DNA of 64,000 bases from Phycisphaerae bacterium (GTDB lineage: Bacteria; Planctomycetota; Phycisphaerae; UBA1845; PWPN01): NCBI GenBank assembly GCA_012719955.1, contig JAAXZI010000165.1:8611-72610 (forward strand). Direction: 5' to 3'. Position 1 is the first letter of the stretch, and each line of letters starts with the position of its first letter. Under the pieces are notes generated by a model. That model saw only the letters and a program-made list of their open reading frames with translations. It had not been told where the DNA came from and made no database searches. The position numbers and the translations under genes were made by a program. Below, one piece after another: positions 4,593-62,526 of the stretch.

Positions 4593-5978
4593 ATGGCAGG
4601 ACGCGTTCTGAAACTGGCACTGGTCGGCGGCGGGATGTTCGGGCGGGACGTGGTGCTGCGCTGCCTGGCCGACGTGCAGCGATGTGGCATTGCCCCTTAC
4701 CTGGGCACGGCCGGTCTCGATCACCACGCCCGCGAGTTGGCCCACGTCGAATATGAGGTGGTGGCCATAGGGACACGGACGGCCCGCACCGCCGAGTCGT
4801 TGTCGGCGGAATATGCTCAGTGGGTGCCCGGCGCCCGGCCGGCGGCGTATTACGGGGAGGAGCCGTGGCTAGGCATACTTGAAGAACAACGGCCGGACGT
4901 GCTCTTTGTGGCCACGCCGGACCATCTGCACACCGCCCCCATCCTGGCGGCCATCGAGCGCGGGGTGCACGTGGTGACCGAGAAGCCGCTGACGCTCCGG
5001 CTGGACGAGGCCCGCACGATTGTCGAGCGGGCCAGGGCGGCGGGGGTAGTCGTGGCCCTGGACATGCACAAACGCTACGACTCTTTTCTGCGCAGCACTT
5101 TTCTGGACATAGTGCCGGAGCTGGGCGAGCTGCTGTATGCCCGGGCCGTGCTGGAGGAGCCGCTGGAGGTATCCACGAAGACATTCAAGTGGGCGGCCCG
5201 GAGCAACCCGTTCAGTTATGTGGGCATCCACTGGACGGACCTGTTTGCCCATTACCTGAAGGTCCGGCCGGTGTCACTGTTTGCGGTCGGGCAGAAGAAG
5301 CTGCTGGCGAACTGGCGCGACGAGGCCCACCCGGACGGGATCGACACGTTTGATGCCATGCAGGTGACCGTGCAGTACGACAACGGGATGAGCGTGCAGT
5401 ACGTGAACGCGTGGATCAACCCGGCGGACTTCGAGGGGCCGGTCAACCAGGAAATGGAGATCGTCGGCACGCGCGGGCGGGTGTTCGTGGACCAGCAGGA
5501 CCGCGGGCTGCGACTGACATTGACCGGGGGCGGGACGCGGACGCGGAATCCGCATTTTCAGGCGGAGGTGCCGCGGGCCGGTGTGGCCCCCACTCCTCGT
5601 GATGCGATACCGGGTCCTGTAAGGATGGCGCCAGATCCTGTAGCGGCCGGGCTCCGTACCGGCCGTTCTCCTCAAGGCTTCCCCACGAGTCCGGGAACAC
5701 CAGTGGCATGCAACAGCGCCTGCATTGGGTACTGCAAGGACTCATTGATAGCAGGCTTGGACGCGGCCTCACGCGTAGCGCTGGGCCTGGGTGATGCGGC
5801 CTCGCTGGCCGGGACGTATCCGGACGCGGCGTCACAGTTGAATTGCATCGCGATTCTGGAGGCGGCGGCACACGTGGCGGGGGCCAATCACGCGAGTTTG
5901 GCAGCCGGGCGGGCCGCAGCAACTGTTGCCTGTTTCACCAGAGCCGGCTTTGAGCTCTCCGGGAATGAACTTGAGTAA
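4593..5978 (+). CDS. Gfo/Idh/MocA-family oxidoreductase with a repeat-derived internal insertion
   Basis: N-terminal Rossmann pattern KLALVGGGMFGRDV, followed by VATPDHLHTAPILAAIERGVHVVTEKPL. The ATG at 4593 fits the family N-terminus. REP-A is translated as PVAAGLRTGRSPQ. Confidence 0.8.
   Translation: MAGRVLKLALVGGGMFGRDVVLRCLADVQRCGIAPYLGTAGLDHHARELAHVEYEVVAIGTRTARTAESLSAEYAQWVPGARPAAYYGEEPWLGILEEQRPDVLFVATPDHLHTAPILAAIERGVHVVTEKPLTLRLDEARTIVERARAAGVVVALDMHKRYDSFLRSTFLDIVPELGELLYARAVLEEPLEVSTKTFKWAARSNPFSYVGIHWTDLFAHYLKVRPVSLFAVGQKKLLANWRDEAHPDGIDTFDAMQVTVQYDNGMSVQYVNAWINPADFEGPVNQEMEIVGTRGRVFVDQQDRGLRLTLTGGGTRTRNPHFQAEVPRAGVAPTPRDAIPGPVRMAPDPVAAGLRTGRSPQGFPTSPGTPVACNSACIGYCKDSLIAGLDAASRVALGLGDAASLAGTYPDAASQLNCIAILEAAAHVAGANHASLAAGRAAATVACFTRAGFELSGNELE
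5637..5672 (+). repeat. REP-A copy 1 (CCTGTAGCGGCCGGGCTCCGTACCGGCCGTTCTCCT), intragenic
   Basis: Hairpin with stem CGGCCGG/CCGGCCG and 8-nt loop GCTCCGTA. Differs by one base from 6021-6056. Confidence 0.9.
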
Positions 5979-5980
5979 TC

Positions 5981-6125
5981 TCTCCCCCACTTCTGAAAAG
6001 GCGGGACACCCGGGTCAAATTCTGTAGCGGCCGGGCTCCGTACCGGCCGTTCTCCTCTGGAGTCTCCCTGCTCCCCATCGTCTACAAAGGGTCCCCCCAT
6101 CTCTGAAGAGGTCGGGCACCCGAGC
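5981..6125 (+). repeat. composite intergenic repeat block: ~35-bp imperfect direct repeats flanking REP-A copy 2 (6021-6056)
   Basis: 5981-6016 (TCTCCCCCACTTCTGAAAAGGCGGGACACCCGGGTC) compares with 6091-6125 (GTCCCCCCATCTCTGAAGAGGTCGGGCACCCGAGC). REP-A lies between them. Confidence 0.7.
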
Positions 6126-6194
6126 TTCTCACTTCTGACGAGCTGAGTACCCGAGGCGCGGGAATGCCCCCCTGCTTGGGTATGAATCACCCCG

Positions 6195-9041: not shown

Positions 9042-9131
9042 TGCCGGTTCCGGTCCGGAAGTTTCGTGCTTCGGCTCATGAGGCGGGCAGAATACCCGCT
9101 CCCCCGGCAGCAGCAGGCGGCTGTTCCGGCG

Positions 9132-9150
9132 GGCGGGCGTCCTGCCCGCC
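9132..9150. repeat. REP-C copy (GGCGGGCGTCCTGCCCGCC); a degenerate copy lies at 9082-9101
   Basis: Palindrome GGCGGGC/GCCCGCC. The same core occurs at 39671-39689 and 55144-55162. Confidence 0.75.
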
Positions 9151-9275
9151 TGATTCGGCGCGAAACGGGTGGACTGGAAACGGCGTCAGCGGATGCCCGA
9201 TAGAGAATCAAGAGAAGTACCCGGGATGAAAAGCGCGTCGAGCGGCGCAGGCGTCACCGGGGACTGTTTTTTCCC

Positions 9276-39644: not shown

Positions 39645-39670
39645 TGGAGGTAATGGCGGCGGTTCCGGAG

Positions 39671-48514: not shown

Positions 48515-48557
48515 AAGCGGCGCGTCCACCACGCTTTAGCGATCGAAGCCGATCAAA

Positions 48558-48586
48558 GAACCGCGGGCCACGGTCCGCGGTTTTTC
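48558..48586 (+). terminator. rho-independent terminator
   Basis: AACCGCGG (48559-48566) pairs with CCGCGGTT (48575-48582) around an 8-nt loop, followed by a T-run. It lies 44 nt after the oxidoreductase stop. Confidence 0.6.
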
Positions 48587-48698
48587 TATGCGCCCTTCCC
48601 GATCATCCCTCGTCCGGTCCGGCAGTCGATCGCCGTGGGAGCCCCGCCCGCCCCACGGCGTCGGGGCGCAGGCCCCCACCGGCCGTGGCGGAGGAAAA

Positions 48699-48720
48699 AA
48701 GTGTGGAAAAATCCACACTT
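48699..48720. promoter_or_regulatory. perfect dyad AAGTGTGGA-AAAA-TCCACACTT, candidate BlaI-family operator
   Basis: 9-bp arms. A third half-site AAGTGTGG at 48741-48748 overlaps the predicted promoter spacer and extended -10. Confidence 0.55.
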
Positions 48721-48725
48721 CGTCC

Positions 48726-48754
48726 TTGGCAGCCCTTCCGAAGTGTGGTATTTT
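48726..48754 (+). promoter_or_regulatory. candidate promoter TTGGCA - 17 nt - TG.TATTTT for the blaI-like operon
   Basis: -35 at 48726-48731 and -10 at 48749-48754 with TG at 48746-48747. It lies 46 nt upstream of the ATG at 48800. Confidence 0.5.
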
Positions 48755-48799
48755 CTTCATGTCAACGCGAGTCCCCCAACGCTCAGGAGAAGCCAGCTT

Positions 48800-49192
48800 A
48801 TGGCCCGTCTCACCCCCGGCGAACTGGAAGTCATGCAGGTGCTTTGGAAGGAGAGCCCCCTCAAACCCGCCGAGATTGAAGCGCGTTTACCCCGTCCCAT
48901 CGGCAATGCCGCCTTGCGATCCGTACTGAGAGTGCTGCTCAACAAGGGACATGTGAAACGGGCCAAACAGGGCAAAGCCTACTTTTATCGCCCCACCCAG
49001 CCGGCGCACTCTTCCTTTCGGCAGATGGCGCAGAAACTGGCGGATGTCTTCTTCGGAGGATCTTCGCTCGATCTGATCGCCGGCCTTATCAAGAGCGAAA
49101 AACTGTCCGACGAAGACATCCGCAAACTCCAGGATATCGTCCGCACTCGGAATGATCCGGCAGAAGCGCATCCCCCAGGAGAGAAGTCATGA
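48800..49192 (+). CDS. BlaI/MecI/CopY-family transcriptional repressor
   Basis: LTPGELEVMQVLW...PLKPAEIEARL...SVLRVLLNKGHVKR winged-helix pattern of the Penicillinase_R family. ATGA overlap with the downstream M56 gene. Confidence 0.85.
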   Translation: MARLTPGELEVMQVLWKESPLKPAEIEARLPRPIGNAALRSVLRVLLNKGHVKRAKQGKAYFYRPTQPAHSSFRQMAQKLADVFFGGSSLDLIAGLIKSEKLSDEDIRKLQDIVRTRNDPAEAHPPGEKS

Positions 49193-52134
49193 TCCATCAA
49201 TGGCTCCGCGCCTGCATCGAACTGCCCCCCGCCTGCGAACTCCTGTTCAAGATCACCATCCTGTTGACCATGGCATGGGCGCTGCATCTGGTCCTGCGGC
49301 GCGGCAACCCTTATTGGCGCGTGCTGCTCTGGCGCGGATTCGGCACGGCCATCCTCGCCACCCCCCTGCTGATCCTGGTGACACCGGAGATTCCGGTTGC
49401 CGTCCCGGCGGCGTCGCCCATGGCCGCGGGCCCGGCGATGGAGCAGGACTGGCCGCTCCTCTCCTATCAACCAGAACCGCTCACGGTAGCGGCACCCCAG
49501 GACACAGCGGCAGGAATCCCCGCGGCACCCATCGCCGCGCAACCGCCGTGGACCACGCGGGCCGCCAGGTGGATCACCGGCCACGGGCCTGCGCTGCTGG
49601 CAGCACTCTGGGCCACGGGCAGCGCGTTGCTCCTTGGGCAATGGATCCTTGCGTGGCTGCGGCTGCGGCGGATCATTGCGCTCTCGACCGCGGCGGGCGA
49701 GCACTACTGGGAACCGCTGCGCCGTGCCCAAACGGCGGTCGGATGCCATGCGAGGGTGCGGTTGCGTTTGGCCCGCGGATTGTCCAGCCCCCTGCTGGCC
49801 AGCGTTCGCACGCCGACCATTCTGATCCCCGAACATCTGGCCACCCGCACCAGCCCGGCGGAACTGCAGGCCATCCTGGCCCACGAGCTGTGCCATTTGA
49901 ACAACCGCGACTTGCTGTGGATGGCGATACTGCGCGGCCTGACCATTCTGCTCTGGTGGCACCCTCTCGCCTGGCGGCTGTGCCAGGCTCATGGCGAGGC
50001 ATGTGAAGAAGCATGTGACGCCGCCGCGGCCACCATTGTGGGCGATCCGGCCGCCTATTCCCGCACCCTGGCCCGCCTGGCGCTCGCCGCGTTGGCCCCG
50101 GCGCCCGCGCTGGCCGGCATTCCCATGGCCCGGCCCGCGCAGATAGTACGGCGCCTGTCGCGCCTGGCCATGCGCATGAATGCGTCACGGCCCGGACTGC
50201 GCCACGTGCTTCCGGCGGGTCTTCTGGCCGCCGCCGTCAGCCTGGGGCTGAGCGGCCTGCAACTGGTCGGCACGACGATGGCCGCACCGGAGACCCGGCC
50301 GGCAGACGCCGCCGCACGGGTGCTGCATTTCCCAACGGACCGGTCGCTGGGCACGCTCTTCGTCCAGGACGCCCATTCTCGGGGGGAGACAACCACCTCT
50401 TACCACTGGATGGAAGACGAGACCAGCAACCAGTGGGACGAACTCGGCCCTGCCCGCGGAGATGTGACCATCCCGGCCGGCAAGCGCGTACACCTGAGGG
50501 TCGAACGGGAAGGCTGGAAAGACCTCTCCCCGCTGGCCAGCCTCGCGCCTGACGATCTCGAGGCCTTATCCTTCAGTGGCTCAGGCCTGACCGCGGAGGA
50601 AAGCGAGGACTGGGGCATCCTGCGCGCCGAAAGCGCCGACGATGCCGTGATGCCGCACGTGGCCCGGCTCACCGGTTTGAAGAGCCTGCACCTCAATCTC
50701 ACCTGCGTGACCGGCAAGGCGCTTCGACATCTTGAAGGGTTCCAATCCCTGGAATCCCTCTCACTGCCCTGCCGGATGGATGACGAGGGCATGCCCTACG
50801 TGGCCAGACTCACCGGCCTCAAGCGGTTGTATTTCACCCGGAACACCGTCACCAATCGAGGTCTGGCCGCGCTGAAAAGCCTCCGCAACCTGGAGGAGTT
50901 GGAACTCGGCGGCAAGGCCATGAGCGACGGGGGCCTTGTGCATCTCAAATCGCTTCCTCGACTGAATCACCTGACGCTCTGGGGGACGACTTTCACGGAT
51001 GCGGGCATGGCCCACGTGGCTCAGGTTTCTTCGCTCAAGATCTTCCATCCTTTCCGCATGAACACGATTGGAGACCAGGGGCTCGCCCACCTGGCCAAGC
51101 TGCCGAACCTGCAACGGCTTGCCTTGCACTACAACGAGAAAATCACCGACGCCGGCATGGCCCACGTGGCCCGTATGCGGGCGTTGCGACAGCTCAACCT
51201 CAGTCACACGAAGATCGGCGACGCCGGCGCCAAACATCTCCAGAAGCTTCCCCACCTGGAATTGCTGAACCTGCCCAGCGGCCTCAGTTCGGACGCCCTG
51301 GTCGCCCTGCTGGCCAACCAGCCCCGGCTGCGCAGCCTGGAGTGCGGCACCACCTCCAACAGTCCATACGGGAACGAGTTGTGCGAGCAGATTGGCAAAA
51401 TGGCTGACTTGGAGGAAGTGACCATCACCGGAAGGCGGATCACCGATGCCGGGATGACTCACCTGACCAACTGCCGCAAACTCAGAAAGCTCATGCTGTT
51501 CTACTGTCCCATCACCAACAAAGGCCTTGCCGAGCTTGGCCGGATCAAATCGCTCACGAACCTGGACATCACCGGCGCAAGATTGACGACTTCCGGCCTC
51601 AAGCAGCTCAATGGCCTCACCCATCTCACTTATCTCAGACTCTCACAGGTCGAGCCCGACGAGGAATACGCGGATCTCTCCGGCCTCACCAACCTGCGGA
51701 AATTCACCTGGGGCGACAGCTCCAACGGCGAACCCTTGCGCGACGCCGACCTGGCCTCGCTGGCCAAACTGAAGAACCTCGAATGGTTTCAGATGTCCTT
51801 TGGCCGGGGAATCACCGACGCCGGCCTGGCCCACCTGGCCGGCCTGACGCAAATGAAACGGCTGTCGATTGGAGACGAACTGACCGATGCGGGATTGGCC
51901 CACCTGGCAAACATGAAGCAGCTCAATTCCCTGACCATCGCCGGCAATTTCACCGAGAAGGGCCTGCTGACGCTCGGACGCCATTCATCGCTGGCCTACC
52001 TGTGGGTGGCTACGCCCAGGCGGCTCAGCAACGACATCGCCGACCAGATGGCCGCCCGGCTGCCCAACCTGTCCTTGTTCCACTACGGCCCGGACTCTCA
52101 ACACATGCGACCACTCCAACTGAGCCGCCCCTGA
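49189..52134 (+). CDS. BlaR1-like M56 membrane metalloprotease fused to a ~600-aa leucine-rich-repeat domain
   Basis: Transmembrane N-terminus with HELCHLNNRD (HExxH) of M56. The C-terminus holds more than 15 repeats of ~24-25 aa of the type L..L.L....ITDAGLAHLA.L..L. Confidence 0.85.
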   Translation: MIHQWLRACIELPPACELLFKITILLTMAWALHLVLRRGNPYWRVLLWRGFGTAILATPLLILVTPEIPVAVPAASPMAAGPAMEQDWPLLSYQPEPLTVAAPQDTAAGIPAAPIAAQPPWTTRAARWITGHGPALLAALWATGSALLLGQWILAWLRLRRIIALSTAAGEHYWEPLRRAQTAVGCHARVRLRLARGLSSPLLASVRTPTILIPEHLATRTSPAELQAILAHELCHLNNRDLLWMAILRGLTILLWWHPLAWRLCQAHGEACEEACDAAAATIVGDPAAYSRTLARLALAALAPAPALAGIPMARPAQIVRRLSRLAMRMNASRPGLRHVLPAGLLAAAVSLGLSGLQLVGTTMAAPETRPADAAARVLHFPTDRSLGTLFVQDAHSRGETTTSYHWMEDETSNQWDELGPARGDVTIPAGKRVHLRVEREGWKDLSPLASLAPDDLEALSFSGSGLTAEESEDWGILRAESADDAVMPHVARLTGLKSLHLNLTCVTGKALRHLEGFQSLESLSLPCRMDDEGMPYVARLTGLKRLYFTRNTVTNRGLAALKSLRNLEELELGGKAMSDGGLVHLKSLPRLNHLTLWGTTFTDAGMAHVAQVSSLKIFHPFRMNTIGDQGLAHLAKLPNLQRLALHYNEKITDAGMAHVARMRALRQLNLSHTKIGDAGAKHLQKLPHLELLNLPSGLSSDALVALLANQPRLRSLECGTTSNSPYGNELCEQIGKMADLEEVTITGRRITDAGMTHLTNCRKLRKLMLFYCPITNKGLAELGRIKSLTNLDITGARLTTSGLKQLNGLTHLTYLRLSQVEPDEEYADLSGLTNLRKFTWGDSSNGEPLRDADLASLAKLKNLEWFQMSFGRGITDAGLAHLAGLTQMKRLSIGDELTDAGLAHLANMKQLNSLTIAGNFTEKGLLTLGRHSSLAYLWVATPRRLSNDIADQMAARLPNLSLFHYGPDSQHMRPLQLSRP

Positions 52135-52361
52135 TCCGCGGCTATATGACCGGGCGCGATCCTGCGATACGTGTGGGGACACGCCCCACGCCCAGCGCGC
52201 GCTCGGCCGGCTCAACCATCGCGCATAGCCACTTTGAGGAATTCCCTCCGCTTGCCGATAAGGGATCAGCTATAAGTCTGTACATCTCACGCCTTTTGTG
52301 CAGAATGGCAGCCGCCCGGAACTGTATTGGCGTCCGAAGCCTGAACTGGAAAGGAAGGACC

Positions 52362-55031
52362 GTGACCGACGCGCGCCAAAGAATCACGATCGCACCATTA
52401 CTGACACTAATTCTGTTCGTACCCGCCTGCTCGCTGGCGCCCAAGGCTCCTCTCTGGGAGCCGTCCCCGGCCAGCCGGGCGGCCGAAAAGTTCGATTATT
52501 TCCAGAACTCCTGGAGCGTCATCGGCCTGAAGGACTACAAGGACGGCACGCGGATCACACCGAGCAACGAGCTGGTGCTGGCCGGCGGGCGGAAGGTGCG
52601 CATCCGGTTCGGGCGGGAGCTGACCGCTCTGAGCCGCGAGCAGGTCAAGACCAACCTGGAAGGCTGGATGCCCATCATCCAACTGCGGGCCGTGGACGGC
52701 CAGGTCCAATACGATTTCACGTTCTGGGCCACGCCCTTAACGTCGGTGCCCGATTGGAAGGCGGCGTTCAACTGGCCGGTGGCTGGGGAGGATTACCTCA
52801 ACTGGGTGAGTGTGGCGGTCACCAACACCGGCGCGACGGCTGCCCCGGCCAAGATTCGCATCGAGCTGGTCGAGGGTGACAATGTTCGTGGGAACACGCA
52901 GGAATGGACGGTTCAGCCGGGGGTAGACCATGCGGTTGTCGGCATCGCGCATCGCTTCCCGTTCCATGCCGCCGCCGAGGAGTCGAAAGTCTCCGGCGAA
53001 GAGGCCCGGCTCTGGCTTGAGCGCACCAGGGAATGGTGGCGGGACACGTTGGCTTCGGCGGCCCGGATCGTCGTGCCGGAGGTCAAAGCCACCCAGGCCC
53101 TGCTGGCCGCTCACGTCTGCCAGTTGATCGCCCTCGATCACGGCGAGATCCACGGCGGCGAGGGCTTCTATGACCGGTTCTACGCGCGCGACGGGGCCTA
53201 CCAGATCATGGAGCTGGAAGAGGCCGGCCTGATGGACATTGCCCGCAAGGCCATTGCCGTATACCTGAAGTATCAGCGGCCGGACGGACGATTCGAGAGC
53301 CAGAAGGGTCAGCTCGACGCCAACGGCCAGTCCCTCTGGGCGCTCTGGCAGTTCTACCAGATCACCGGCGACAAGGCCTGGCTGGCCGAAGTGTATCCGC
53401 AGATGCGCCGGGCCGCGGAATGGACTATCAAGGCCCGGCGGGAAGCGCCGGCTGATTCGCCCTTTGCCGGCCTGCTGCCGAACGCCCTGGCTGACGGCGA
53501 GTATCTCTGGGACGGCCAGTATCACATCGTGGGGTACGATTTCTGGAACCTGCGCGGCTTGCTCTGCACCGCCGAAGCAGCCCGGGCCCTGGGCCGGGTC
53601 GAAGAGGCGGACGAACTGGCGCGCGAGGCGGACGACTATCGCGCGGCGATCGACGCCGCCTGGAAGCGCACCGGGTTGCCCCACTTTCCGCCAAGCTGGG
53701 AAAAGGTGGGCACCCACTGGGGCAATACGGAGACCCTGTGGCCGACCCCTTTGTTCACACCGGATGATCCGCGCGTGTCCGCCCTGATCCGCGAGGTCCG
53801 CGAGCGCCACGGAGGCGGATTCTGCGAAGGAACCATCCGCTGGACGGGCTTCCCCGGCGCCATTCATCCCTACATGTCGGCGTACACCACCATGGCCGCC
53901 CTGGAGCGCGGCGAGAGTGAGCAGGTCATCGAGGATTTCTACTGGTACCTGCTGCATTCGACGGCCACCCACGCCTTCCCCGAGGGCGTCTTCTACAAAC
54001 GGCGGTTCGCCTGGAGTGACACCATCCCCCACGCCACGGGGGCCAGCAACTACGCCATCCTGCTGCGGCACATGCTCATCCATGAACGTGGCGATGAGCT
54101 GCACCTGCTGCCGGCCGTGCCGGAATGGTGGTTCGGTCCGGGTGAGCGGATCGAAATCGAAAACGCTCCCACCCACTTTGGGCTGGTCAGCCTGCGTGTC
54201 GTCGGACGAGGGGGTGGCCTGGAGGTCGATCTCAAACTGCCGACCGAGCGGCCGGCCAGCCGGGTGGTTCTGCATCTGCCCGCCTCCCGGCGACTGCTCA
54301 CGCCGCTCCAGGGCGTGGAGGTGGTGACTGCCCCACCACAGAAGAAACGCTGGACCTTCGCGACGGTGGTGGAGCTTTACAACCGGACCGCTCCTCCGCT
54401 GGGCGGGAAGATTGAGGGTTTGGTCCATCTGCCCGCCGACCCGCCCCTGTCGCCGGGTGCCGTGAAGATGCTCAATCTGAGCGCCGCCGCCAACACCGAC
54501 CCCTTCAAGGCCCCCTTCGGAAAGGAAAACCCCGGCAAGTACCTGTTCACCGGCCTGCCCACGGGAACGCAGGTGTGCGCAGGCGTGCCCTTCACCATTC
54601 TGGATCCCTCCAAGAATGAGGGCCGGGGCCTGGTCGTCCTGCACTCACCCCAGGCCCCGCAGGACCGCACCTGGCCGAAGGAAGTCGTCATTCCCGTCGG
54701 CGAAGCCGGCAAGCGGCTGTATTTCCTGGGCAATGTGCACGGATGGGCGCCCGATGACCCCGGCGAGGGCGAATGGGGCGCGGTGGCTGAGTACATCATC
54801 CGCTATGCGGACGGCGAGTCGCAGACGGTGCCGCTCATCACCGGGCGGACGACCGAGGAATGGACCGCGTCGCCGTCGGCGAGCGACGTGTTCTGCGCAT
54901 TGCGGGGCGACCCCTGGCATCTCAACGTGCTGGGCGTGGAGCTGCGTCCGGTGAAGGTCGAGAGCATCGTGTTCCACGATCGCGGAACGCCGGCGGCACC
55001 GGTACTGGTGGCGGTCACGCTGGAGCGATGA
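52362..55031 (+). CDS. lipoprotein, six-hairpin (alpha/alpha)6 glycosidase-like protein with a C-terminal beta-rich domain
   Basis: GTG at 52362 after AAGGAAGGA gives the lipobox LFVPAC. GFYDRFYARDGAYQ...DANGQSLWALWQFYQITGD resembles GH15/GH63-type toroid folds. The 51783 start overlaps the LRR gene and is rejected. Confidence 0.75.
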   Translation: MTDARQRITIAPLLTLILFVPACSLAPKAPLWEPSPASRAAEKFDYFQNSWSVIGLKDYKDGTRITPSNELVLAGGRKVRIRFGRELTALSREQVKTNLEGWMPIIQLRAVDGQVQYDFTFWATPLTSVPDWKAAFNWPVAGEDYLNWVSVAVTNTGATAAPAKIRIELVEGDNVRGNTQEWTVQPGVDHAVVGIAHRFPFHAAAEESKVSGEEARLWLERTREWWRDTLASAARIVVPEVKATQALLAAHVCQLIALDHGEIHGGEGFYDRFYARDGAYQIMELEEAGLMDIARKAIAVYLKYQRPDGRFESQKGQLDANGQSLWALWQFYQITGDKAWLAEVYPQMRRAAEWTIKARREAPADSPFAGLLPNALADGEYLWDGQYHIVGYDFWNLRGLLCTAEAARALGRVEEADELAREADDYRAAIDAAWKRTGLPHFPPSWEKVGTHWGNTETLWPTPLFTPDDPRVSALIREVRERHGGGFCEGTIRWTGFPGAIHPYMSAYTTMAALERGESEQVIEDFYWYLLHSTATHAFPEGVFYKRRFAWSDTIPHATGASNYAILLRHMLIHERGDELHLLPAVPEWWFGPGERIEIENAPTHFGLVSLRVVGRGGGLEVDLKLPTERPASRVVLHLPASRRLLTPLQGVEVVTAPPQKKRWTFATVVELYNRTAPPLGGKIEGLVHLPADPPLSPGAVKMLNLSAAANTDPFKAPFGKENPGKYLFTGLPTGTQVCAGVPFTILDPSKNEGRGLVVLHSPQAPQDRTWPKEVVIPVGEAGKRLYFLGNVHGWAPDDPGEGEWGAVAEYIIRYADGESQTVPLITGRTTEEWTASPSASDVFCALRGDPWHLNVLGVELRPVKVESIVFHDRGTPAAPVLVAVTLER

Positions 55032-55062
55032 AAAGGCGGAAATAAATCCTCCGCCGCAAAAT

Positions 55063-55094
55063 TGTAGCGGCCGGGCTCCGTACCGGCCGCTACA
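55063..55094. repeat. REP-A copy 3, full palindrome TGTAGCGGCCGG-GCTCCGTA-CCGGCCGCTACA
   Basis: 12-bp perfect stem between convergent genes (stops at 55031 and 55209). It could act as a bidirectional terminator or RNA stabiliser. Confidence 0.85.
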
Positions 55095-55143
55095 GGTCCT
55101 TGGACGATGCACTGCACGCGGAAGGATAACCCGCTCTCCAGAA

Positions 55144-55162
55144 GGCGGGCAGGATGCCCGCC
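55144..55162. repeat. REP-C copy (GGCGGGCAGGATGCCCGCC)
   Basis: Same palindrome as 39671-39689, in the opposite orientation. Confidence 0.75.
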
Positions 55163-55208
55163 CCCCGATGGCGATGTCCGGCCCCTTCCGAGGAGCCAGC
55201 CCAGAAGC

Positions 55209-56468
55209 TCAGGCAAGCCGCCGACGGCCGCCCGGACCGGTGCCGATGGTCCGGCCAAGTGATCGGATACGGCTCTTGAGGCAGCCGCGACAGTGCTGGG
55301 CCGTCTCCGTGATGCACGCTTTCGCCGGGTAGATCTCGTACATGGCCCGGTACTGAACGGGGGTGAGGTTGGGCATCACCACGTTGGCCCCCCGGCACAG
55401 GGCCAGCTCGCGTCCGCTCTCCTGGTTGAGGGTGGCGATGGCGGTCGTGCCGGGAATGTTGGCCTGGGGGCACATCAGTCGGGTCAGGGCCACCATTTTG
55501 TACGCCATCTTCTCCGTATTGGGCACCTGGTCCGCCGAGGGGTGAGGCTCCGGCCGGGTTGCCAAGCGCTCCCCCAGCGGCGTGTCCGGATGCGGGATGT
55601 ACGGCCCCACGCCGATCATGTCGAGGTCCAACTCGCGGAACAACAGCAGATCGCGCGCGAGCGTCTCGTAGGTCTGCCCGGGAATGCCCACCATCACACC
55701 GCTGCCAATCTCATAGCCCAACCCGCGGAGCGTCCTCAGCAGTTCCACGCGGTCGGAAGGGCGCGAACCCAACGGCGGATGAATGCGGGCGTAGAGCTCA
55801 CGGTCGGACGTCTCGAAGCGAAGCAGGTAGCGGTCCGCCCCCGCTTCGCGCCAGGCGGCAAGGTCCTCGACCGGCCGTTCGCCCAGGCTCAGCGTGACCG
55901 CGAGGGGCGTCTCGGCCTTGATCTGGCGGATCAGCCGGGCGAGCCAGCTCCGGCCGATGCCGTAGTCCTCGCCGGCCTGCATGACCACCGTGCCGTAACC
56001 GAACTCGACCGCCTGGCGGGCACAGGCGAGGACCTCGTCGGCCGACAGACGATAGCGCACCAGCTTGGTGTGCCCGGCGCGCAGGCCGCAGTAGGCGCAC
56101 TGCCGCACGCAGTGGTTGGAGATCTCGACCAGCCCGCGCAGATGCACGGCATCGCCCACCATTTCATGCCGCACACGGTCCGCGGCTGCGTACAGCGTTT
56201 CCAGCCGGGAGTCGTCCTCTTCGCGCAGCCAGTGGAGAAGGTCGGTTTCGGTCAGTGGGCTTTCCAGGTGCGATGCGCCGTCAGCAGCGGACGCGGAACG
56301 GCCGGTACGGAGCCCGGCCGCTACAGAGTTGGCATGGAGGCCGGGCGGTACGGGGTTGGTACGAGGCCCGGGCGCGACAGAGCCGGCGGAAACATGGGCC
56401 GGCCCTGCCGGTGTTGCGCCTTCCGGCGAGCTAGAACAGTGGTTCAGAATGGGTAAAGAGCTCAGCAC
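55209..56468 (-). CDS. hydE: [FeFe]-hydrogenase maturase HydE (radical SAM) with a repeat-derived N-terminal extension
   Basis: EISNHCVRQCAYCG radical-SAM motif. HydE-like blocks VMQAGED and LRFETSD. GTG start overlaps the hydF stop by 7 nt. Confidence 0.9.
   Translation of the reverse strand: MLSSLPILNHCSSSPEGATPAGPAHVSAGSVAPGPRTNPVPPGLHANSVAAGLRTGRSASAADGASHLESPLTETDLLHWLREEDDSRLETLYAAADRVRHEMVGDAVHLRGLVEISNHCVRQCAYCGLRAGHTKLVRYRLSADEVLACARQAVEFGYGTVVMQAGEDYGIGRSWLARLIRQIKAETPLAVTLSLGERPVEDLAAWREAGADRYLLRFETSDRELYARIHPPLGSRPSDRVELLRTLRGLGYEIGSGVMVGIPGQTYETLARDLLLFRELDLDMIGVGPYIPHPDTPLGERLATRPEPHPSADQVPNTEKMAYKMVALTRLMCPQANIPGTTAIATLNQESGRELALCRGANVVMPNLTPVQYRAMYEIYPAKACITETAQHCRGCLKSRIRSLGRTIGTGPGGRRRLA
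56299..56327 (-). repeat. REP-A copy 4, inside the hydE 5' coding region (translated SVAAGLRTGRS); degenerate copies up to ~56390
   Basis: The plus strand reads CGGCCGGTACGGAGCCCGGCCGCTACAGA. The adjacent 56331-56390 is a decayed tandem copy. Confidence 0.85.
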
Positions 56469-57739
56469 GCCATCTTCTCCTGTTCGAAACCCCTGCCTGC
56501 CCGTCTGGCAGTCCAGGCCCGCTGATAGACTTCCATGGCCGCGGGGAACGGTTGTAGGGCCCGTTCAAACAAGCCCAGACTGTAGGAGATCACCAGCCCG
56601 TAATTCGTGATGGGCACGCCCGCCTGCCGGCAGCGCAGGATGCGCGTGAGCACTTCGCGTCGGTTGGTCATACACGCTCCGCAATGGATGACCAGCTTGT
56701 AGGGGGACAGGTCCTCCGGAAAATCGTGGCCCTGCACGTGCTCGAATTTCAGCTCGCCGCCCACGTACTGCGTGAGCCAGCGTGGGATCTTGACCCGGCC
56801 GATGTCCTCGGCAATGGGATGATGGGAGCAGGCCTCGGCCACCAGAACGCGGTCGCCGGCCCGCAGCACATCCACCGCCAGCGTGCCCTCCACCTGCGCG
56901 GCCAAGTCGCCTTTGAAGCGGGCAAAGAGAATGGAGAAGCTGGTCATGGGGATTTCCGGCGGCGTGTCGGCAGCCACCTTGAGGAAGGCTTGAGAGTCAG
57001 TTACCACCAGGGCGGGCGGCTCGGAGAGCATCTCCAGCGCCCGGGGCAGTTCGCGCTCCTTGACCACCATGCAGAACGCGTCGTGATCGAGCAGATCGCG
57101 GATGGTCTGAACCTGAGGCAAAATCAGCCGGCCCCGCGGGGCCTCCTTGTCGATGGGCACGACCAGGACAGCCGCCCGGCCCGGCGGTACCAGGTCGGCC
57201 AGAATGGTCGGGTTGTTCACGAAATCGGCCGGGGCCACATCCAGCAGGGCCTGGCGGAAATCAAGCATGCCCTCGCCCCGGCTGGCCGCGGTCCGCACCA
57301 GCCTCACGTTCAGCCCGGTCAGCTTTTGCACCAGCTCCGGGTCGGGCGCCGCCAAGTCGATCTTGTTGAACACGACCACCACCGGCACGTTCCGCTTGCG
57401 CAGCTCCGCGAGCACCTGATCCTCAAATGCCCCCCACGCGCCGGCTTCGGCCACGATGACCCCCAGATCGGTACGATCCAGCACCTGGCAGGTCTTACGC
57501 ACGCGCAAAGCGCCAAGCGCGCCCTCATCGTCCACGCCGGCGGTATCGATGAAGAGCACCGGCCCCAGCGGCAGCAGCTCCATGGGCTTCTCAACGGGGT
57601 CGGTCGTGGTGCCCGCGAACTCGGACACGATCGACACCTGCTGGCGCGTGACGGCGTTGAGCAGGCTCGACTTGCCGACGTTGCGACGGCCAAAGAGGCC
57701 GATGTGCAAACGCAGGCTCCGGGGAGTTGAGCGATTCAT
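56462..57739 (-). CDS. hydF: [FeFe]-hydrogenase maturation GTPase HydF
   Basis: GRRNVGKSSLLNA P-loop, DTAG, NKID. C-terminal EACSHH...HCGACM cluster-binding motifs. AAGGAGA RBS. Confidence 0.92.
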   Translation of the reverse strand: MNRSTPRSLRLHIGLFGRRNVGKSSLLNAVTRQQVSIVSEFAGTTTDPVEKPMELLPLGPVLFIDTAGVDDEGALGALRVRKTCQVLDRTDLGVIVAEAGAWGAFEDQVLAELRKRNVPVVVVFNKIDLAAPDPELVQKLTGLNVRLVRTAASRGEGMLDFRQALLDVAPADFVNNPTILADLVPPGRAAVLVVPIDKEAPRGRLILPQVQTIRDLLDHDAFCMVVKERELPRALEMLSEPPALVVTDSQAFLKVAADTPPEIPMTSFSILFARFKGDLAAQVEGTLAVDVLRAGDRVLVAEACSHHPIAEDIGRVKIPRWLTQYVGGELKFEHVQGHDFPEDLSPYKLVIHCGACMTNRREVLTRILRCRQAGVPITNYGLVISYSLGLFERALQPFPAAMEVYQRAWTARRAGRGFEQEKMAC

Positions 57740-57818
57740 CGCGTCTCCTTCTCGATGGGAAACAGGCGCTGATGGAACACAGTCAACCTCATGACAACAC
57801 GCCTTCGGTCACCTGCTT

Positions 57819-59231
57819 TCACACGAACACGTCCCGGCCGCCGATCCTCACCTTCGTTACCAGCTTCTCGGCGATTTGCCGGCCGCGGGGGTCCATCTCC
57901 CCCATCGCGGCCTGGATGCGCGCCTCGCCGGCCTGGCGCGTGGGCCCGGAGGCGTAGTCGCACAGGTATTCCTGGAACGTGGAGAGAGCGTTGGGATCGC
58001 AGTGATGTTTGATCTCCCCCGGCTTGGCCAGATCCATGAAGTCCTGACCGGTCCGGCCCAGGCGATAGCACGCGGTGCAGAAGGAGGGAATGTAGCCCAG
58101 TTCCGCGACATCGCGCACGACCTCGTCCAGCGGACGGTGATCGCCCAGGGCGAATTGCTCGGTGGCCTCGCCTTCACCTTCCTCATAACCGCCGGGGTTG
58201 GTCCGGCTGCCGGCGGAGATCTGAGAGACGCCCAGGGCGAAGGTCTCCCGGCGAATGGCGGGCGACTCGCGCGTGGACATGATGATGCCGGTGTACGGAA
58301 CGGAGATCCGCAGAATAGCGACGATCTTGAGAAAGTCGATATCGCTGACCGACTGCGGCGGGCGCCCGGCCAGTGGCGCGCCCAGGGCCGGCTCGATCCG
58401 CGGGACGCTGATGGTATGCGGGCCGACGCCGAACTTCTCTTCCAGGTGGCGGATATGCTGCATCAGGGCCAGGATCTCGAAGCGCCAGTCGGCCAGTCCG
58501 AACAGCACGCCCATGCCCACGTCATCGATGCCCGCTTCCATGGCCCGGTCGAAGGCCGAGATCCGCCAATCGTAATCGCGCTTCCTGCCGGCCACGTGCA
58601 CCCGTGAATACACCTCCCGGTGGTAGGTCTCCTGGAAGAGCTGATAGGTGCCGATGCCGGCGGCTTTGAGTTGCCTGAACTGATCCAGGGTCAGCGGGGC
58701 GACGTTGGCGTTCACGCGGCGGACCTCGCCGGGACCGACTTTGGTGTCATAAATGGTCGCGATGGCCTTGAGTATGTAATCGAAGCCTTCCTCCGCGGGG
58801 TAAGCTTCGCCGGCCACCAGCAGGATGCGCTTGTGGCCCTGGCGGATGATGAGCTCGGTTTCGCGGGCGATCTCGGCCTGGGTGAGAGCCCGCCGTCGAA
58901 GGGCCTTGTTCCCGGCCCGGAAGGCGCAATACAGGCACTCGTTGCCGCACAGGTTGGAGATGTAGAGCGGGGCAAACAGCACCAGCCGCTTGCCGTAGAT
59001 TTCCTCCTTGACCCGCCGGGCGGTGGCGAACAGCTCATTCAACAGGCCCGGGTCGCTGAGGTTCATCAATACGGCCATCTCTTCAGGTTCGAGCCCCTTG
59101 AGGGCCAGGGCCTTGGTCAATATCTCGCGCACCTGCGACGCGTCACACCGGCGGCTTTGCGCCAGCGTGTGCTCGATCTTCTCGTAATTGATCGGTACTG
59201 TCTCGACGTTGCGCGTTACCACTGCGTTCAT
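57819..59231 (-). CDS. hydG: [FeFe]-hydrogenase maturase HydG (radical SAM tyrosine lyase)
   Basis: NLCGNECLYCAF radical-SAM motif and the C-terminal CTACYR...HHCDPN auxiliary cluster motif. Confidence 0.92.
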   Translation of the reverse strand: MNAVVTRNVETVPINYEKIEHTLAQSRRCDASQVREILTKALALKGLEPEEMAVLMNLSDPGLLNELFATARRVKEEIYGKRLVLFAPLYISNLCGNECLYCAFRAGNKALRRRALTQAEIARETELIIRQGHKRILLVAGEAYPAEEGFDYILKAIATIYDTKVGPGEVRRVNANVAPLTLDQFRQLKAAGIGTYQLFQETYHREVYSRVHVAGRKRDYDWRISAFDRAMEAGIDDVGMGVLFGLADWRFEILALMQHIRHLEEKFGVGPHTISVPRIEPALGAPLAGRPPQSVSDIDFLKIVAILRISVPYTGIIMSTRESPAIRRETFALGVSQISAGSRTNPGGYEEGEGEATEQFALGDHRPLDEVVRDVAELGYIPSFCTACYRLGRTGQDFMDLAKPGEIKHHCDPNALSTFQEYLCDYASGPTRQAGEARIQAAMGEMDPRGRQIAEKLVTKVRIGGRDVFV

Positions 59232-59337
59232 CTTTGAAATCCTTCCTGTCTATTCGCGGGAAAAGATTCCCGCTTCATGCGGGGTGCGAAAAACAACTCT
59301 CGCAACCACCGCCTGGGAGTCTCGCATCAGCCCGGAG

Positions 59338-59479
59338 CCTTCTCCTTGCCCCTCGTCCTCTTGTCTCCTTGTCCCCTTGTCGGCGTATCGCCTGAACGGC
59401 CGGTACGGAGCCCGGCCGCTACAGGGGTGGGACGGAGCCCGGCTGCTACCTCTTACAAGTAGCTGCTACCACCTACAGG
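59338..59479. repeat. composite repeat block: pyrimidine-rich copy of the zwf repeat (59338-59381), REP-A copy 5 (59397-59425), and two degenerate REP-A units (59426-59479)
   Basis: Exact 22-mer shared with 1621-1642 (reverse complement). CGGCCGGTACGGAGCCCGGCCGCTACAGG. The following GGTGGGACGGAGCCCGGCTGCTACC and CTACAGG units decay progressively. Confidence 0.8.
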
Positions 59480-60636
59480 TACTCAACGGTCACCAGCTTT
59501 CCGGCACGGCGCAGCTTCTCCGCCAGCAGGGGCACGATGTTTTCACGGTGCAGGATGCCCCGCTGTCGGAAGGCAATGTTGTCGTGATCGGCGTTCCGCT
59601 TTCTGCCGACGAGGAACAGCACGCGATCGGCCTCCCGGAGCAGCTCGCACAAGCGGCTCACGCCGGTGGCCTTCTCGTACTTGCCGGGATCTTCGTCGAT
59701 GATGTTGTACGCCTGGTTGAGCGTCACCGCTCCTTCAGTGGCCAGGTCCACGTCCTTGAGCACGTAATCGGGCGGAGCAATCAGGCTGCTGGCCTCCTGG
59801 CGCACGGCCACACTGGTGTGCGTGTGGCGGGCAACGATTTTGGCGGTCGTGCCCCCGCATACCACCTTCCGCCCTTCCAGACTCATGAACCGCCGCACCA
59901 CCGCACCGTCGTCCTCCTCGTCGGCGGGCGGGCCGGTCAATACGTTGACGATGCGGCCCTGGCGGCAGCGAGCCAGCAGCACCGTACAGTCGTCTCCCTG
60001 GGCCAGCCGTCCGGGTTCTTCCGAAAGGTTCTGGGCCTGGAAATGCACCGAGGCGGACAGCTTATCCAGGGGCAGGCCGGTGCTGAGTTTCCCATTGATG
60101 TAACGGCATGCGCCCTCGATGCCCCAGCCCTCCGCATAACCGGCGCCCAGCCCCGCCTGGGTGACGCCGTCGCTGACCAGCATCAGGGCCTCACCAGGCT
60201 CGACGTAACAGTCGGACTCATGCACCAGCGCATTGTCCAGCAGCAGCGTCCGGTGCGGCAGGACGGTGGCGAACTTCTTGGCGCTGATCACGATGGCCGG
60301 CGGCATCTCGTACGAGAGCACCGTGGTCTCACCGTCGTTGGCGATCCGGGCGATGGTAAAGCAGGCGTAGGGCAGGTCGCTGCCCCGGATCCCGGCCATG
60401 GTGCCGGCCACGCCGGCCATGGCTTCGCGCAGCGAGTAGTCGCGGCGCAGCAGCTCGTGAAGCCGCGAGACGGTCATGGTCGCCGCCACGTTGGCCCTGA
60501 TGCCGGAGCCGATCCCGTCACAGCAGATGATGGTTGTGCCGCGAACCGTGCGTTCCCAGGACACCACGTCGCCGCACAAGCCACCAACCCGCCGGGGGCT
60601 CTGGCATGCGTCTATTTCGACGTGTACATATCCCAT
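59473..60636 (-). CDS. SpoIIE/PP2C-like serine phosphatase with an uncharacterised C-terminal domain (HfsC-like)
   Basis: GDVV...CCDGIGSG...CFTIARI...GEALMLVSDGV follows the SpoIIE/PPM pattern. Overlaps the hydS end by 25 nt. Confidence 0.75.
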   Translation of the reverse strand: MGYVHVEIDACQSPRRVGGLCGDVVSWERTVRGTTIICCDGIGSGIRANVAATMTVSRLHELLRRDYSLREAMAGVAGTMAGIRGSDLPYACFTIARIANDGETTVLSYEMPPAIVISAKKFATVLPHRTLLLDNALVHESDCYVEPGEALMLVSDGVTQAGLGAGYAEGWGIEGACRYINGKLSTGLPLDKLSASVHFQAQNLSEEPGRLAQGDDCTVLLARCRQGRIVNVLTGPPADEEDDGAVVRRFMSLEGRKVVCGGTTAKIVARHTHTSVAVRQEASSLIAPPDYVLKDVDLATEGAVTLNQAYNIIDEDPGKYEKATGVSRLCELLREADRVLFLVGRKRNADHDNIAFRQRGILHRENIVPLLAEKLRRAGKLVTVEYL

Positions 60637-62372
60637 ATCATGGGCCTTCCCTGAGGGGTCCGCGGATCGTTGGCATACTGGAGCAGGTTGCGGACCAGTT
60701 CCTCGCCGCGGGCCGTGCTCTCGCCGAGCAGCTTGGCGATCTGCTGGGCCATGGTGATCTGGTGCTCGAGCAGCTCGCGCGCCTGCCGGGCGGTCTGCGA
60801 TTGAAGCTGTTGCAGTTTCTCTTCGTTGGCCTGGCTGTGGGTGACGTTCACGAAGATACCGACGTACTGGCCTTCAGCCTCCAGCCGGTAGAGGATCTGG
60901 TGGCACAGCAGCTTGTACTTCTGATGGTGGACCGTGATGGAGACCGGCTCATGGCCATTTACGGCGAGCTGTTCAAAGGGCTCAGGGTCCATCAGGTACG
61001 AGATCTTTCGCCCGCACACCGCGTCTGAGCAGCAGAACATCTTCCGGAACGCCGCGTTCATGTGAATGATCTCGAACCGGTCGTTGAGAATCACGATGCC
61101 GTTGGGGCTGGTGTCGATGATGCGGTCGGTGCGCTGCTCGGCCAGCAGCCGCATGCGCGGAATGCACATCTCCGGCTCGGCCAGGCCGCGCAGGACGGCG
61201 ATGGCTTTCTCCCGGCAGCTCGAATAGCCGCAGGACCCGCAATTAAGCTGGTCCTCCACGCGGGCCTTGCCGGTCTTTTCGAGCACGGCCCGAATCTGTT
61301 CCTCGGTGAACTCCTCGCCGCCGGCGGTCGCGTCGGGAGCGAAGTTCTGGTTCAGCTCGACGCCCTCGACGAGCGACTCGGAACGGGCCGTCGGGGTGGA
61401 CTGGGCATAATCCAGCACGGCAGCGCGTTTGCCATAGAGATTGCCCCCGGCCGGCATGCCGGGCCCGTTCACACAGCCCTGGGCGCAGAACAGCGGTTCG
61501 ATCATCCGCGGGAAAGCGTCGTGACGAATGCCGTCCAGGGCCTCGGACACCTCTTCGAAGCCGCTGGGAGCGATGCACTCTTCGGCGAGCAGGTCGGTGT
61601 GCAGGGCGGCAGTTTTAGCCAGCCCGCCGGGCAGAGGGAAGAAGCGGGCGTGCCCGGCGGGGCTGGCGTCAAACCGACTCTCCTCGAGTTCCGCGAGCAC
61701 GATGTCTTCGCGCTCGAACCATTCCATCAATTCCTTGAAGGTCAGCACGCAGTGGACCAGCCGGCTGTGGCCGGGCCACTGGGCTTCCGCCTTCTTGGCT
61801 ACGCACGGGCCGATGAACACCACTTTGGTCCGCGGCCCCAGCGCGGCGCGGATCAGGCGGGCATGGGCAATCATGGGCGAGACCACCGGCACCAGGGCGT
61901 CAATCAGCTCCGGCCGGTACTTCTCCACGTAGCTCACCACCGCGGGGCAGGCGGTGCACACGTGCGGGCGCTCGGGTTCGGCGGCCACCACGCGGGCGGT
62001 CTGGGCGGCCACGTGAAACGCGCCCCTGGCGGTTTCGGCCACGTAGGAAAAACCCAGCTTCCGCAACGCGGAGGGCAATCGTTTCCACTCCCATTCGCTC
62101 CACAGGGCGGCAAAGGAGGGAGCCACACTGGCCGCCACCGGATCGCCCCCGGCCAGCAACCGCGCCGCCCGTTCGAGGTCGTTGCGGTAGGCCTTGGCCC
62201 CCTGCGGGCACTGGCGAATGCAGGTCCCGCAGGCGATGCACCGGCCCTCGTCAACGAACGCCTGTCCGTCGCGCACCCCGATGGCCTTCACCGGGCAGGC
62301 CCGCACGCACCGGTAGCAGTCCCGGCAGCGGGCCTTGTCCGTGAAGACGATCTGGGTGGTAGTGGGTTGCAT
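60612..62372 (-). CDS. hydS: sensory [FeFe]-hydrogenase-like protein (HydS/HfsB type): 2x[4Fe-4S] ferredoxin, H-cluster-like domain, Cys motif and PAS
   Basis: CRDCYRCVRACP and CIACGTCIRQCP. H-domain variants VCTACPAVV, GPCVAKKAEA, FCAQGCVNGPG. CGSCGYSSC. The C-terminal PAS region includes SPNGIVILNDRFEIIHMNAAFRKMF. I prefer the ATG at 62372 over the TTG at 62387. Confidence 0.85.
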   Translation of the reverse strand: MQPTTTQIVFTDKARCRDCYRCVRACPVKAIGVRDGQAFVDEGRCIACGTCIRQCPQGAKAYRNDLERAARLLAGGDPVAASVAPSFAALWSEWEWKRLPSALRKLGFSYVAETARGAFHVAAQTARVVAAEPERPHVCTACPAVVSYVEKYRPELIDALVPVVSPMIAHARLIRAALGPRTKVVFIGPCVAKKAEAQWPGHSRLVHCVLTFKELMEWFEREDIVLAELEESRFDASPAGHARFFPLPGGLAKTAALHTDLLAEECIAPSGFEEVSEALDGIRHDAFPRMIEPLFCAQGCVNGPGMPAGGNLYGKRAAVLDYAQSTPTARSESLVEGVELNQNFAPDATAGGEEFTEEQIRAVLEKTGKARVEDQLNCGSCGYSSCREKAIAVLRGLAEPEMCIPRMRLLAEQRTDRIIDTSPNGIVILNDRFEIIHMNAAFRKMFCCSDAVCGRKISYLMDPEPFEQLAVNGHEPVSITVHHQKYKLLCHQILYRLEAEGQYVGIFVNVTHSQANEEKLQQLQSQTARQARELLEHQITMAQQIAKLLGESTARGEELVRNLLQYANDPRTPQGRPMIWDMYTSK

Positions 62373-62378
62373 GGTAGA

Positions 62379-62526
62379 TTTCAGCAATCAGCTTTCAGCG
62401 ATCAGCGATCAGCTTTCAGCTTTGTAGCGGCCGGGCTCTGTACCGGCCGTTGTTCTGTAGCGGCCGGGCTCCGTACCGGCCGTTGTGTTCACGATGCCCA
62501 TGGCCGGTACGGAGTCCGGCCGTTAC
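62379..62526. repeat. intercistronic repeat cluster: simple TTTCAGC/RATCAGC tandem (62379-62422) followed by REP-A copies 6, 7 (direct) and 8 (inverted)
   Basis: 62423-62450 and 62456-62484 are tandem copies. 62502-62526 is the reverse complement, so copies 7 and 8 can pair over ~21 bp. Confidence 0.85.

Follow-up and report, generated by a model that had tools for sequence, protein, structure and literature searches.

The window analysed here, a stretch of 64,000 nucleotides from a Phycisphaerae bacterium (contig JAAXZI010000165.1), carries eight copies of a short GC-rich palindrome that we call REP-A, most of them just downstream of genes and several within a hydrogenase gene cluster. The evidence presented below makes it very probable that REP-A is a family of repetitive extragenic palindromic (REP) elements of the type that depends on a REP-associated tyrosine transposase (RAYT). 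The original prediction, made from the letters of the window, had described a palindromic family with at least eight copies, and its coordinates were right apart from a few flanking bases. Exact matches to the 27-mer TGTAGCGGCCGGGCTCCGTACCGGCCG lie at 5639, 6023, 55063 and 62456 on the forward strand and at 56299 and 59397 on the reverse strand, and a match with one mismatch lies at 62423 (+); the 27-mer did not occur once in 100 dinucleotide shuffles of the window. The eighth copy, at 62501–62526, is inverted and diverged, with mismatches at 3 of 26 positions. A covariance model of 56 REP-A sequence variants, run on the window with filters off, recovered exactly these eight copies, all at E ≤ 5.6e-6, and no further hidden copies in the 64 kb. 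The copies and the decayed units next to them are as follows.

5639–5665, + strand: copy 1, exact; in-frame (PVAAGLRTGRS) within a Gfo/Idh/MocA oxidoreductase gene (4521–5978)
6023–6049, + strand: copy 2, exact; 45 nt past the oxidoreductase stop codon, between convergent genes
55063–55094, + strand: copy 3; 3′ end extended to CTACA, so that GTAG pairs and the stem reaches 12 bp
56299–56325, − strand: copy 4, exact; between hydF and the conserved hydE body, reading VAAGLRTGRS in the 419-aa HydE open reading frame (ORF)
56326–56378, − strand: two decayed units 5′ of copy 4; 27-nt period, 7 mismatches
59397–59423, − strand: copy 5, exact; 50 nt past the stop of a PP2C/SpoIIE phosphatase gene and upstream of hydG, in a unidirectional intergenic spacer
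59424–59449, − strand: decayed unit abutting copy 5; mismatches at 5 of 26 positions (84%), 27-nt period
62423–62449, + strand: copy 6, one mismatch (T for C in the loop); opens a tandem pair whose period is 33 nt
62456–62526: tail-to-tail inverted dimer (REPIN-like) of copy 7 (62456–62482, +, exact) and copy 8 (62501–62526, −, 3 mismatches)

Six of the eight copies are intergenic, and all six lie 17–50 nt past stop codons (6023, 55063, 59397 and the cluster 62423/62456/62501). Copies 1 and 2 have 42 nt in common, flanks included (95%). Copy 3, 32 nt past the stop of a gene at 52362–55031 (+) that is convergent with hydE, folds with −16.3 kcal/mol (z −5.9). The dimer, with an 18-nt spacer between its two copies, lies in the 170 nt that separate the hydA-type hydrogenase gene from the sensory one and folds as a single long hairpin (−31.1 kcal/mol, z −7.45). 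Decayed tandem units, another feature of the original prediction, are found at 56326–56378 and 59424–59449, and the tandem pair 62423/62456 makes a third case. The first of these arrays gives a covariance-model E of 1.8, not significant alone; beyond the second, more GTAGC fragments extend to about 59475. The last 9 kb of the window do hold six of the eight copies, as had been noted (55063–62526), and for the clustering of four of the six independent sites in this interval we obtained a post-hoc P of about 0.005.

Four independent assemblies of the same strain (ENA ERZ27257437, NCBI GCA_049654625.1, the anaerobic-digester sample ERZ941585 and ERZ2931791) are 99.88–100% identical to the window. 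Each carries, base for base, every REP-A copy in its covered part of 45209–64000; the copies at 5639 and 6023 fall outside all four. Since the copies are reproduced in four assemblies, an assembly artefact is excluded for those that are covered.

The hydrogenase cluster in which the last copies lie comprises these genes, assigned through Pfam:

62543 to past the window end, − strand: hydA-type [FeFe]-hydrogenase
60612–62372, − strand: PAS-containing sensory hydrogenase
59473–60636, − strand: PP2C/SpoIIE phosphatase
57819–59231, − strand: hydG
56462–57739, − strand: hydF
55209–56468, − strand: hydE

Anatomy, arrangement and distribution of REP-A

The window and related loci together supplied 188 copies for the anatomy of the unit, and conservation was calculated from 181 oriented copies. 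The unit is 26 nt long and reads GTAG-CGGCCGG-GCTCCGTA-CCGGCCG. Conservation is 87–100% over positions 2–27 (GTAGCGGCCGGGCTCCGTACCGGCCG), loop position 17 excepted (68% C, 30% T); outside this 26-nt block the sequence is random. The 5′ GTAG is unpaired and is conserved at 99%, 98%, 95% and 97% for G, T, A and G, respectively. The stem, CGGCCGG/CCGGCCG, has 7–8 bp and encloses a loop of 6–8 nt, with a folding energy of −9.9 kcal/mol as single-stranded DNA. Its pairing is borne out by covariation. The pair G8–C25 is replaced by T–A in 14 copies, double-change cells number 19 against 5.5 ± 1.8 in shuffles, and the covariation score is 0.120 against 0.045 in shuffles; none of 500 shuffles reached either observed value, and slid-register controls fell far below the true register.

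Copies occur as singles, as direct tandem arrays with 25–36-nt periods, in which the units abut without spacers, and as inverted dimers. All dimers among the sampled copies are convergent (+−), 17 of them with 41–58 nt from start to start and two more at 131 and 136 nt; divergent (−+) dimers were absent from the sample. The unpaired conserved GTAG, the short GC stem and the tail-to-tail dimers match the published signature of GTAG-type REP/REPIN elements (PMC3733652, PMC3116915).

Each species was represented by one genome in a scan with a 25-mer of REP-A that allowed slight degeneracy, and this gave at least 77 stretches with the repeat (hereafter loci, numbered L001 onwards) from about ten metagenome-assembled genomes (MAGs) of Planctomycetota/Phycisphaerae. 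More than 30 contigs of the JAGVEP MAG had REP-A matches, among the matches listed. The element had been called lineage-specific; the same 25-mer is present in at least nine other Planctomycetota/Phycisphaerae MAGs, so that it is not a one-genome element.

REP-A is mostly extragenic and lies just downstream of genes. By a local coding-potential classifier, both flanks are non-coding in 117 of 155 evaluable copies. This measure is too strict: even the proven in-frame copy at 5639 is called non-coding, since the flanks inserted with it are foreign to the native gene. Intragenic calls were therefore based on ORF continuity together with Pfam domains on both sides.

Tandem arrays often stand at the very ends of MAG contigs (L013, L072, L045, L040, L041, L048), which suggests that they break short-read assemblies. 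One carrier, the 755-kb contig CAXXSG010000002.1 (L018, L052), is labelled Desulfuromonadales. It includes a four-unit REP-A array with a 32-nt period and shares about 60% protein identity with the Phycisphaerae contig L003 over collinear stretches; probably the label is wrong or the contig was misbinned.

A cognate transposase in related genomes

Searching the 77 REP-A loci with a motif regular expression and tblastn, we found one RAYT gene, in L071 (104 bits against NF047646). Its clade, clade 1, was rejected as the partner of REP-A: the genes of L071 and of L078–L080 are flanked by a different palindrome, REP-X (CGCTGGTGCGAGAATCCCTTCTCGCACCC), which lies around the L071 gene at 1578–1615 and 2210–2250 and likewise around the RAYTs of L078, L079 and L080. 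The REP-X-bracketed clade comprises 171 well-conserved proteins of 177 aa, including one from Phycisphaerae bacterium RAS1. REP-X is absent from the window and co-occurs with REP-A in L001, L014, L022, L025, L027, L034, L047 and L059.

A lead to a second clade came from a targeted metagenome scan for REP-A with the Asn-Pro-Val codons of the RAYT motif, in reverse complement, 96–156 nt beyond it. A single match was obtained, L082, a truncated RAYT gene with REP-A 34 nt past its stop codon; the product scores 87.4 bits against NCBIfam NF047646 REP_Tyr_transpos, for which the cut-off is 80. Homologs of this protein form clade 2, with a length of about 166 aa and 230 members. All six independent clade-2 loci that we examined have GTAGCG-headed REPs on both sides of the gene, with the GTAG heads pointing outward:

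L083, metagenome contigs (JGI, ENA, Logan): REP-A (+) 91 nt before the ATG; REP-A (−) 34 nt after the stop
L089, contig JAGVEP010000258 of the REP-A-rich MAG: upstream an exact REP-A; downstream five tandem copies with a 27-nt period
L097, JGI metagenome: upstream REP-A with 1 mismatch; downstream two copies
L090, ENA metagenome: upstream a GTAGCGGCCGACCCCCGTGTCGGCCG variant; downstream a GTAGCGGCCGACCCCCGTGTCGGCCG variant
L096, NCBI MAG (CAYMXT01): upstream GTAGCGACCGATTCTCGCGTCGGCCG; downstream GTAGCGGCCGACCCCCGTGTCGGCCG
L099, NCBI MAG (JAFGRR01): upstream GTAGCGTCGGCCCCCCGCGGCCGACG; downstream GTGGCGGCCGCCCCCCGTGGTGGCCG

The flanking repeats are REP-A itself, with at most 1 mismatch, in L083, L089 and L097, and co-diverged GTAGCG variants in L090, L096 and L099, in which the head is kept and the stem and loop are changed. 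Clade-2 proteins contain an HUH motif (HLHVLL) and a Y-x3-NPV motif, and one of them, P0263, matches the Escherichia coli TnpA-REP structure (PDB 4ER8) at E 6.7e-6. By these motifs, they are predicted Y1 HUH transposases of the RAYT type. In relatives of the source organism, REP-A brackets the gene for such a protein on both sides, which by sequence identifies it as a REP with a cognate RAYT, as the original prediction had proposed to look for. Within the same genomes, REP-X has RAYT clade 1 as its partner and REP-A has clade 2.

Copies inside genes and other repeats of the window

Two window copies lie within reading frames. The oxidoreductase ORF at 4521–5978 (+), assigned through Pfam, is continuous over 485 aa. 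In a BLASTP comparison with its ortholog in L075 (4640–5950), an insertion of 29 aa that includes PVAAGLRTGRS interrupts an alignment with 72% identity on either side. Judged from this alignment with an ortholog that lacks the insert, the copy at 5639 is certainly a true in-frame insertion.

For the copy at 56299 an intragenic position is probable. The hydE ORF (55209–56468, −) encodes a radical SAM maturase of 419 aa and is also annotated by NCBI. Its GTG codon at 56468 is the sole canonical in-frame start; a GGAG lies about 8 nt upstream, and the GTG overlaps the hydF stop codon (GTGCTGA, 56462–56468). The overlap and the GGAG suggest that translation is coupled from hydF into a HydE whose 65-aa N-terminal extension derives from the REP. 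No ATG, GTG or TTG occurs between the REP and the conserved N-terminal region of HydE, and use of the first downstream candidate (GTG at RVRHEM) would remove that region. The first ~65 aa of the protein are REP-derived or unique. Besides the identical P0001, the listed homologs are mostly 341–396 aa long, with two of 444–446 aa, at a query cover of 79–89%; 2 of these 119 are long enough for such an extension. The two decayed units and the intact one read VAPGPRTNP, VPPGLHANS and VAAGLRTGR in one frame. With a single usable start and one open frame across the units, translation through the array is likely.

Further examples come from related MAGs, where ORFs run through REP-A unbroken and Pfam domains either flank the repeat on both sides or are split by it. 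The hosts include class I aminoacyl-tRNA synthetases (in L008, and in L028 with three copies), DnaE (where HHH_6 is the split domain), DprA, CCA/polyA polymerase, an FGGY kinase, UbiD, OpcA, a HAD hydrolase, a Ser/Thr kinase and a TPR protein. A strict ORF-based test is passed by 21 of the 188 copies (about 11%). Direct reading of the unit agrees with the earlier statement that five of its six frames are free of stops, and the in-frame copies in the window and in related MAGs bear out the idea that the unit can survive inside genes.

The reading frames in use are not evenly distributed. At 15 of 17–19 independent in-frame sites (from L008, L016, L019, L021, L028, L034, L042, L046, L049 and L075, and 5639 and 56299 in the window) the unit reads VAAGLRTGR in sense or TAGTEPGRY in antisense orientation, a bias of P ≤ 6e-4 over the two-in-five expectation for open frames. 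The simplest idea is that these peptides are better tolerated or that the frames fit the codon composition of the hosts. We also considered that coding insertion, which reaches essential genes such as those for aminoacyl-tRNA synthetases, DnaE and DprA, goes beyond passive survival, either through phase-aware integration or through selection of Gly/Pro/Arg-rich linkers or N-terminal tags such as the 65-aa HydE extension; this we regard as unlikely. If it were true, protein insertions in Phycisphaerae would be generated recurrently by a RAYT/REP system.

Other small repeats accompany REP-A. A palindrome, CCCCCAYYTCTGAARAGGYSGGRCACCC, occurs at 5984–6011 and 6094–6121, flanking copy 2; a consensus copy adjoins REP-A in L071 (164–191), and others are found in L038 and L076. 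Together, CCCCCAYYTCTGAARAGGYSGGRCACCC and REP-A form a mosaic of different hairpins that resembles bacterial interspersed mosaic elements (BIMEs). A 49-nt repeat, 86% identical between 9116–9164 and 39655–39703, is centred on the palindrome GGCGGGCGTCCTGCCCGCC, to which a hairpin near 55148–55172 is similar, and may represent a further small repeat family. The 20-mer ACCCTCTGTGTGCCACGGCT has four copies in two pairs (18585 and 18623, 25895 and 25947) that are 80–100% identical. Six tandem 7-nt units (TCAGCNN) fill 62380–62422, between the REP-A cluster and the start codon of the sensory hydrogenase gene (62372), and at 59330–59385, upstream of hydG, there is a CT-rich tract that resembles CCTTGTC.

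Proposed mechanism, rival explanations and known relatives

We propose that REP-A is a non-autonomous 26-nt element that would be spread and maintained by a single-strand HUH/Y1 transposase, the RAYT. By analogy with E. coli TnpA-REP (PDB 4ER8), the enzyme would recognise the folded hairpin and its GTAG on single-stranded DNA and would cut and rejoin beside the hairpin, seeding single copies, tandem arrays and tail-to-tail dimers. Selection would purge harmful insertions, so that the surviving copies would pile up just downstream of genes. There, the hairpins would become part of 3′ untranslated regions (UTRs) or intercistronic RNA and might influence the stability of the hyd mRNA; by the same analogy, an RNA-level effect on the hyd operon is conceivable. 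A minority of survivors would persist in-frame in tolerant loops, linkers or protein termini. We infer that the window's own genome encodes a RAYT as well. A T-run terminator-like hairpin at 55035–55055 on the reverse strand directly adjoins copy 3, downstream of hydE, which would place this REP inside the hydE 3′ UTR.

Several observations weigh against this account, in particular against recent mobility. Neither the motif search nor tblastn detected a RAYT in the 64-kb window, and the link to the transposase comes from relatives and not from this organism. The L082 match is weak alone, having come from a search designed for its arrangement; owing to this bias, the weight rests on the five further loci reached by protein homology. 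The chemistry of cleavage and mobilisation is borrowed from E. coli and Pseudomonas, and the present pair is known from sequence alone. No insertion polymorphism was seen among the four same-strain assemblies, and the L075 ortholog, at about 80% DNA identity, provides the only presence/absence contrast.

REP-A could instead consist of host regulatory hairpins, acting as terminators, as stabilisers of mRNA 3′ ends or as sites where the hydrogenase operon RNA is processed between cistrons, and kept by selection without a transposase. Such roles have been proposed for REPs (PMC3733652), the hairpins are stable, and most window copies lie 17–50 nt past stop codons or between hyd cistrons. However, no T-run follows the REP-A stem, only TT, as opposed to what a terminator requires, and none of the 10 terminator-like sites called in 54500–63000 is a REP-A copy. 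Moreover, identical 26-mers recur in unrelated contexts, including the coding sequences of at least 11 different genes, and the strictly conserved unpaired GTAG and the flanking of RAYT genes point to recognition by a transposase. We consider regulation as the origin of REP-A improbable; a secondary, exapted RNA role is possible.

[quoted passage not shown] A MITE would consist of the remnant ends of a DDE-type insertion sequence mobilised in trans, and REP-A does resemble one in being short, non-coding, multi-copy and palindromic; a DDE_Tnp_1 fragment also lies near the RAYT locus L080. Against this, REP-A is a 26-nt block with random flanks, with neither terminal inverted repeats around an internal region nor target-site duplications, and the genes that the repeats flank are Y1/HUH RAYTs and not DDE transposases, so that we hold a MITE origin to be very improbable. 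We give practically no credence to assembly artefacts, a conserved peptide-coding motif or a degenerate CRISPR array, which the position of MAG tandem arrays at contig ends (L013, L072, L045) and the five open frames might suggest, because four independent assemblies agree base for base where they cover the copies, the repeat occurs in both orientations, in several reading frames and mostly outside genes, and its tandem units abut without spacers.

A REP family with a RAYT partner, the reading that we prefer, has close precedents. GTAG-tagged REPs have been described in eight phyla, Planctomycetes and Verrucomicrobia among them. They flank RAYT genes ('REPtrons'), favour spacers between convergent or unidirectional genes, and also lie in-frame inside genes, those for DnaE and tRNA synthetases being two examples, with a caution on N-terminal cases (Di Nocera, De Gregorio and Rocco 2013, PMC3733652). 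REP-A shares with GTAG REPs and REPtrons the unpaired 5′ GTAG, a GC-rich stem of 6–9 bp and a length of 20–40 nt (PMC3733652; Nunvar et al. 2010). It also shares the occurrence as singles, tail-to-tail dimers and clusters in spacers near 3′ gene ends, the bracketing of a RAYT by the same REPs, and the minority of in-frame intragenic copies, again including DnaE and tRNA synthetases (PMC3733652). Where the original prediction could assign no described family, the class can be assigned, as the GTAG-tagged REP superfamily; no named sequence family matched. The stem and loop (CGGCCGG / GCTCCGTA) could be tied to none of the 24 named GTAG families, whose consensus sequences were not compared, and Rfam gave no match at the gathering threshold across the whole window. 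Permissive E-values returned only spurious sub-threshold matches to miRNA precursors, on the dimer hairpin, which we rejected. REP-A differs from described GTAG REPs in its host, an uncultured anaerobic Phycisphaerae lineage in place of Proteobacteria, Opitutus or Rhodopirellula, and in its cognate RAYT, a distinct clade of ~166 aa.

The REPIN–RAYT systems of Pseudomonas and Enterobacteria (Bertels and Rainey 2011, PMC3116915; Bertels et al. 2017, PMC5581495) have several properties in common with REP-A: inverted doublets that fold into a single long hairpin, one RAYT with its own REPs on either side, co-divergence of REP and RAYT sequences, and different RAYT clades paired with different REP families per genome. 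Unlike in those systems, REP-A singlets and direct arrays are at least as common as doublets in the sampled loci, and doublet spacing is short (41–58 nt start to start). E. coli REPs, BIMEs and TnpA-REP (Messing et al. 2012, PDB 4ER8; Ton-Hoang et al. 2012) share the GTAG-headed hairpin and a homologous RAYT with HUH and Tyr motifs, but clade-2 RAYTs are only distantly related to TnpA-REP, and REP-A arrays are mostly direct, whereas BIMEs alternate REP orientation with defined linkers.

Rickettsia palindromic elements (RPEs) are likewise palindromic selfish DNA found in-frame in functional, even essential genes, to which they add short surface peptides (Ogata et al. 2000, cited in PMC3733652). 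RPE-4 and RPE-6 are short, intragenic and CGTC-tagged, and RPE-1 is a longer palindromic insertion (PMC3733652). REP-A, by comparison, is GTAG-tagged, has 26–30-nt units that are often tandem, and has a RAYT partner. RPEs are about 100–150 bp long, and we know of no transposase associated with them. Membership of REP-A among the RPEs was rejected: in-frame insertion is shared, and size and end tag differ.

REP-A belongs to a known kind of element, to which it adds a new sequence family and a new host lineage; it fits the 2013 description (PMC3733652) point by point. The concept is unchanged by our findings, as intragenic GTAG REPs and REP-flanked RAYTs had already been described then. REP-A turns out to be ordinary for its kind, and the call made in the original prediction was correct. 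For annotation, the five open frames of the unit mean that gene callers run ORFs through REP-A, as in the 419-aa HydE and the 485-aa oxidoreductase. The repeat can also be used as a marker for its Phycisphaerae clade, and in that use it exposed the probably mislabelled 'Desulfuromonadales' contig. To our knowledge, REPIN–RAYT biology has been studied almost only in Proteobacteria. Our results add a REP/RAYT pair, REP-A with RAYT clade 2, and a second pair, REP-X with RAYT clade 1, to the uncultured anaerobic Phycisphaerae, together with a case of co-divergence in which the GTAGCG head is kept while stem and loop change.

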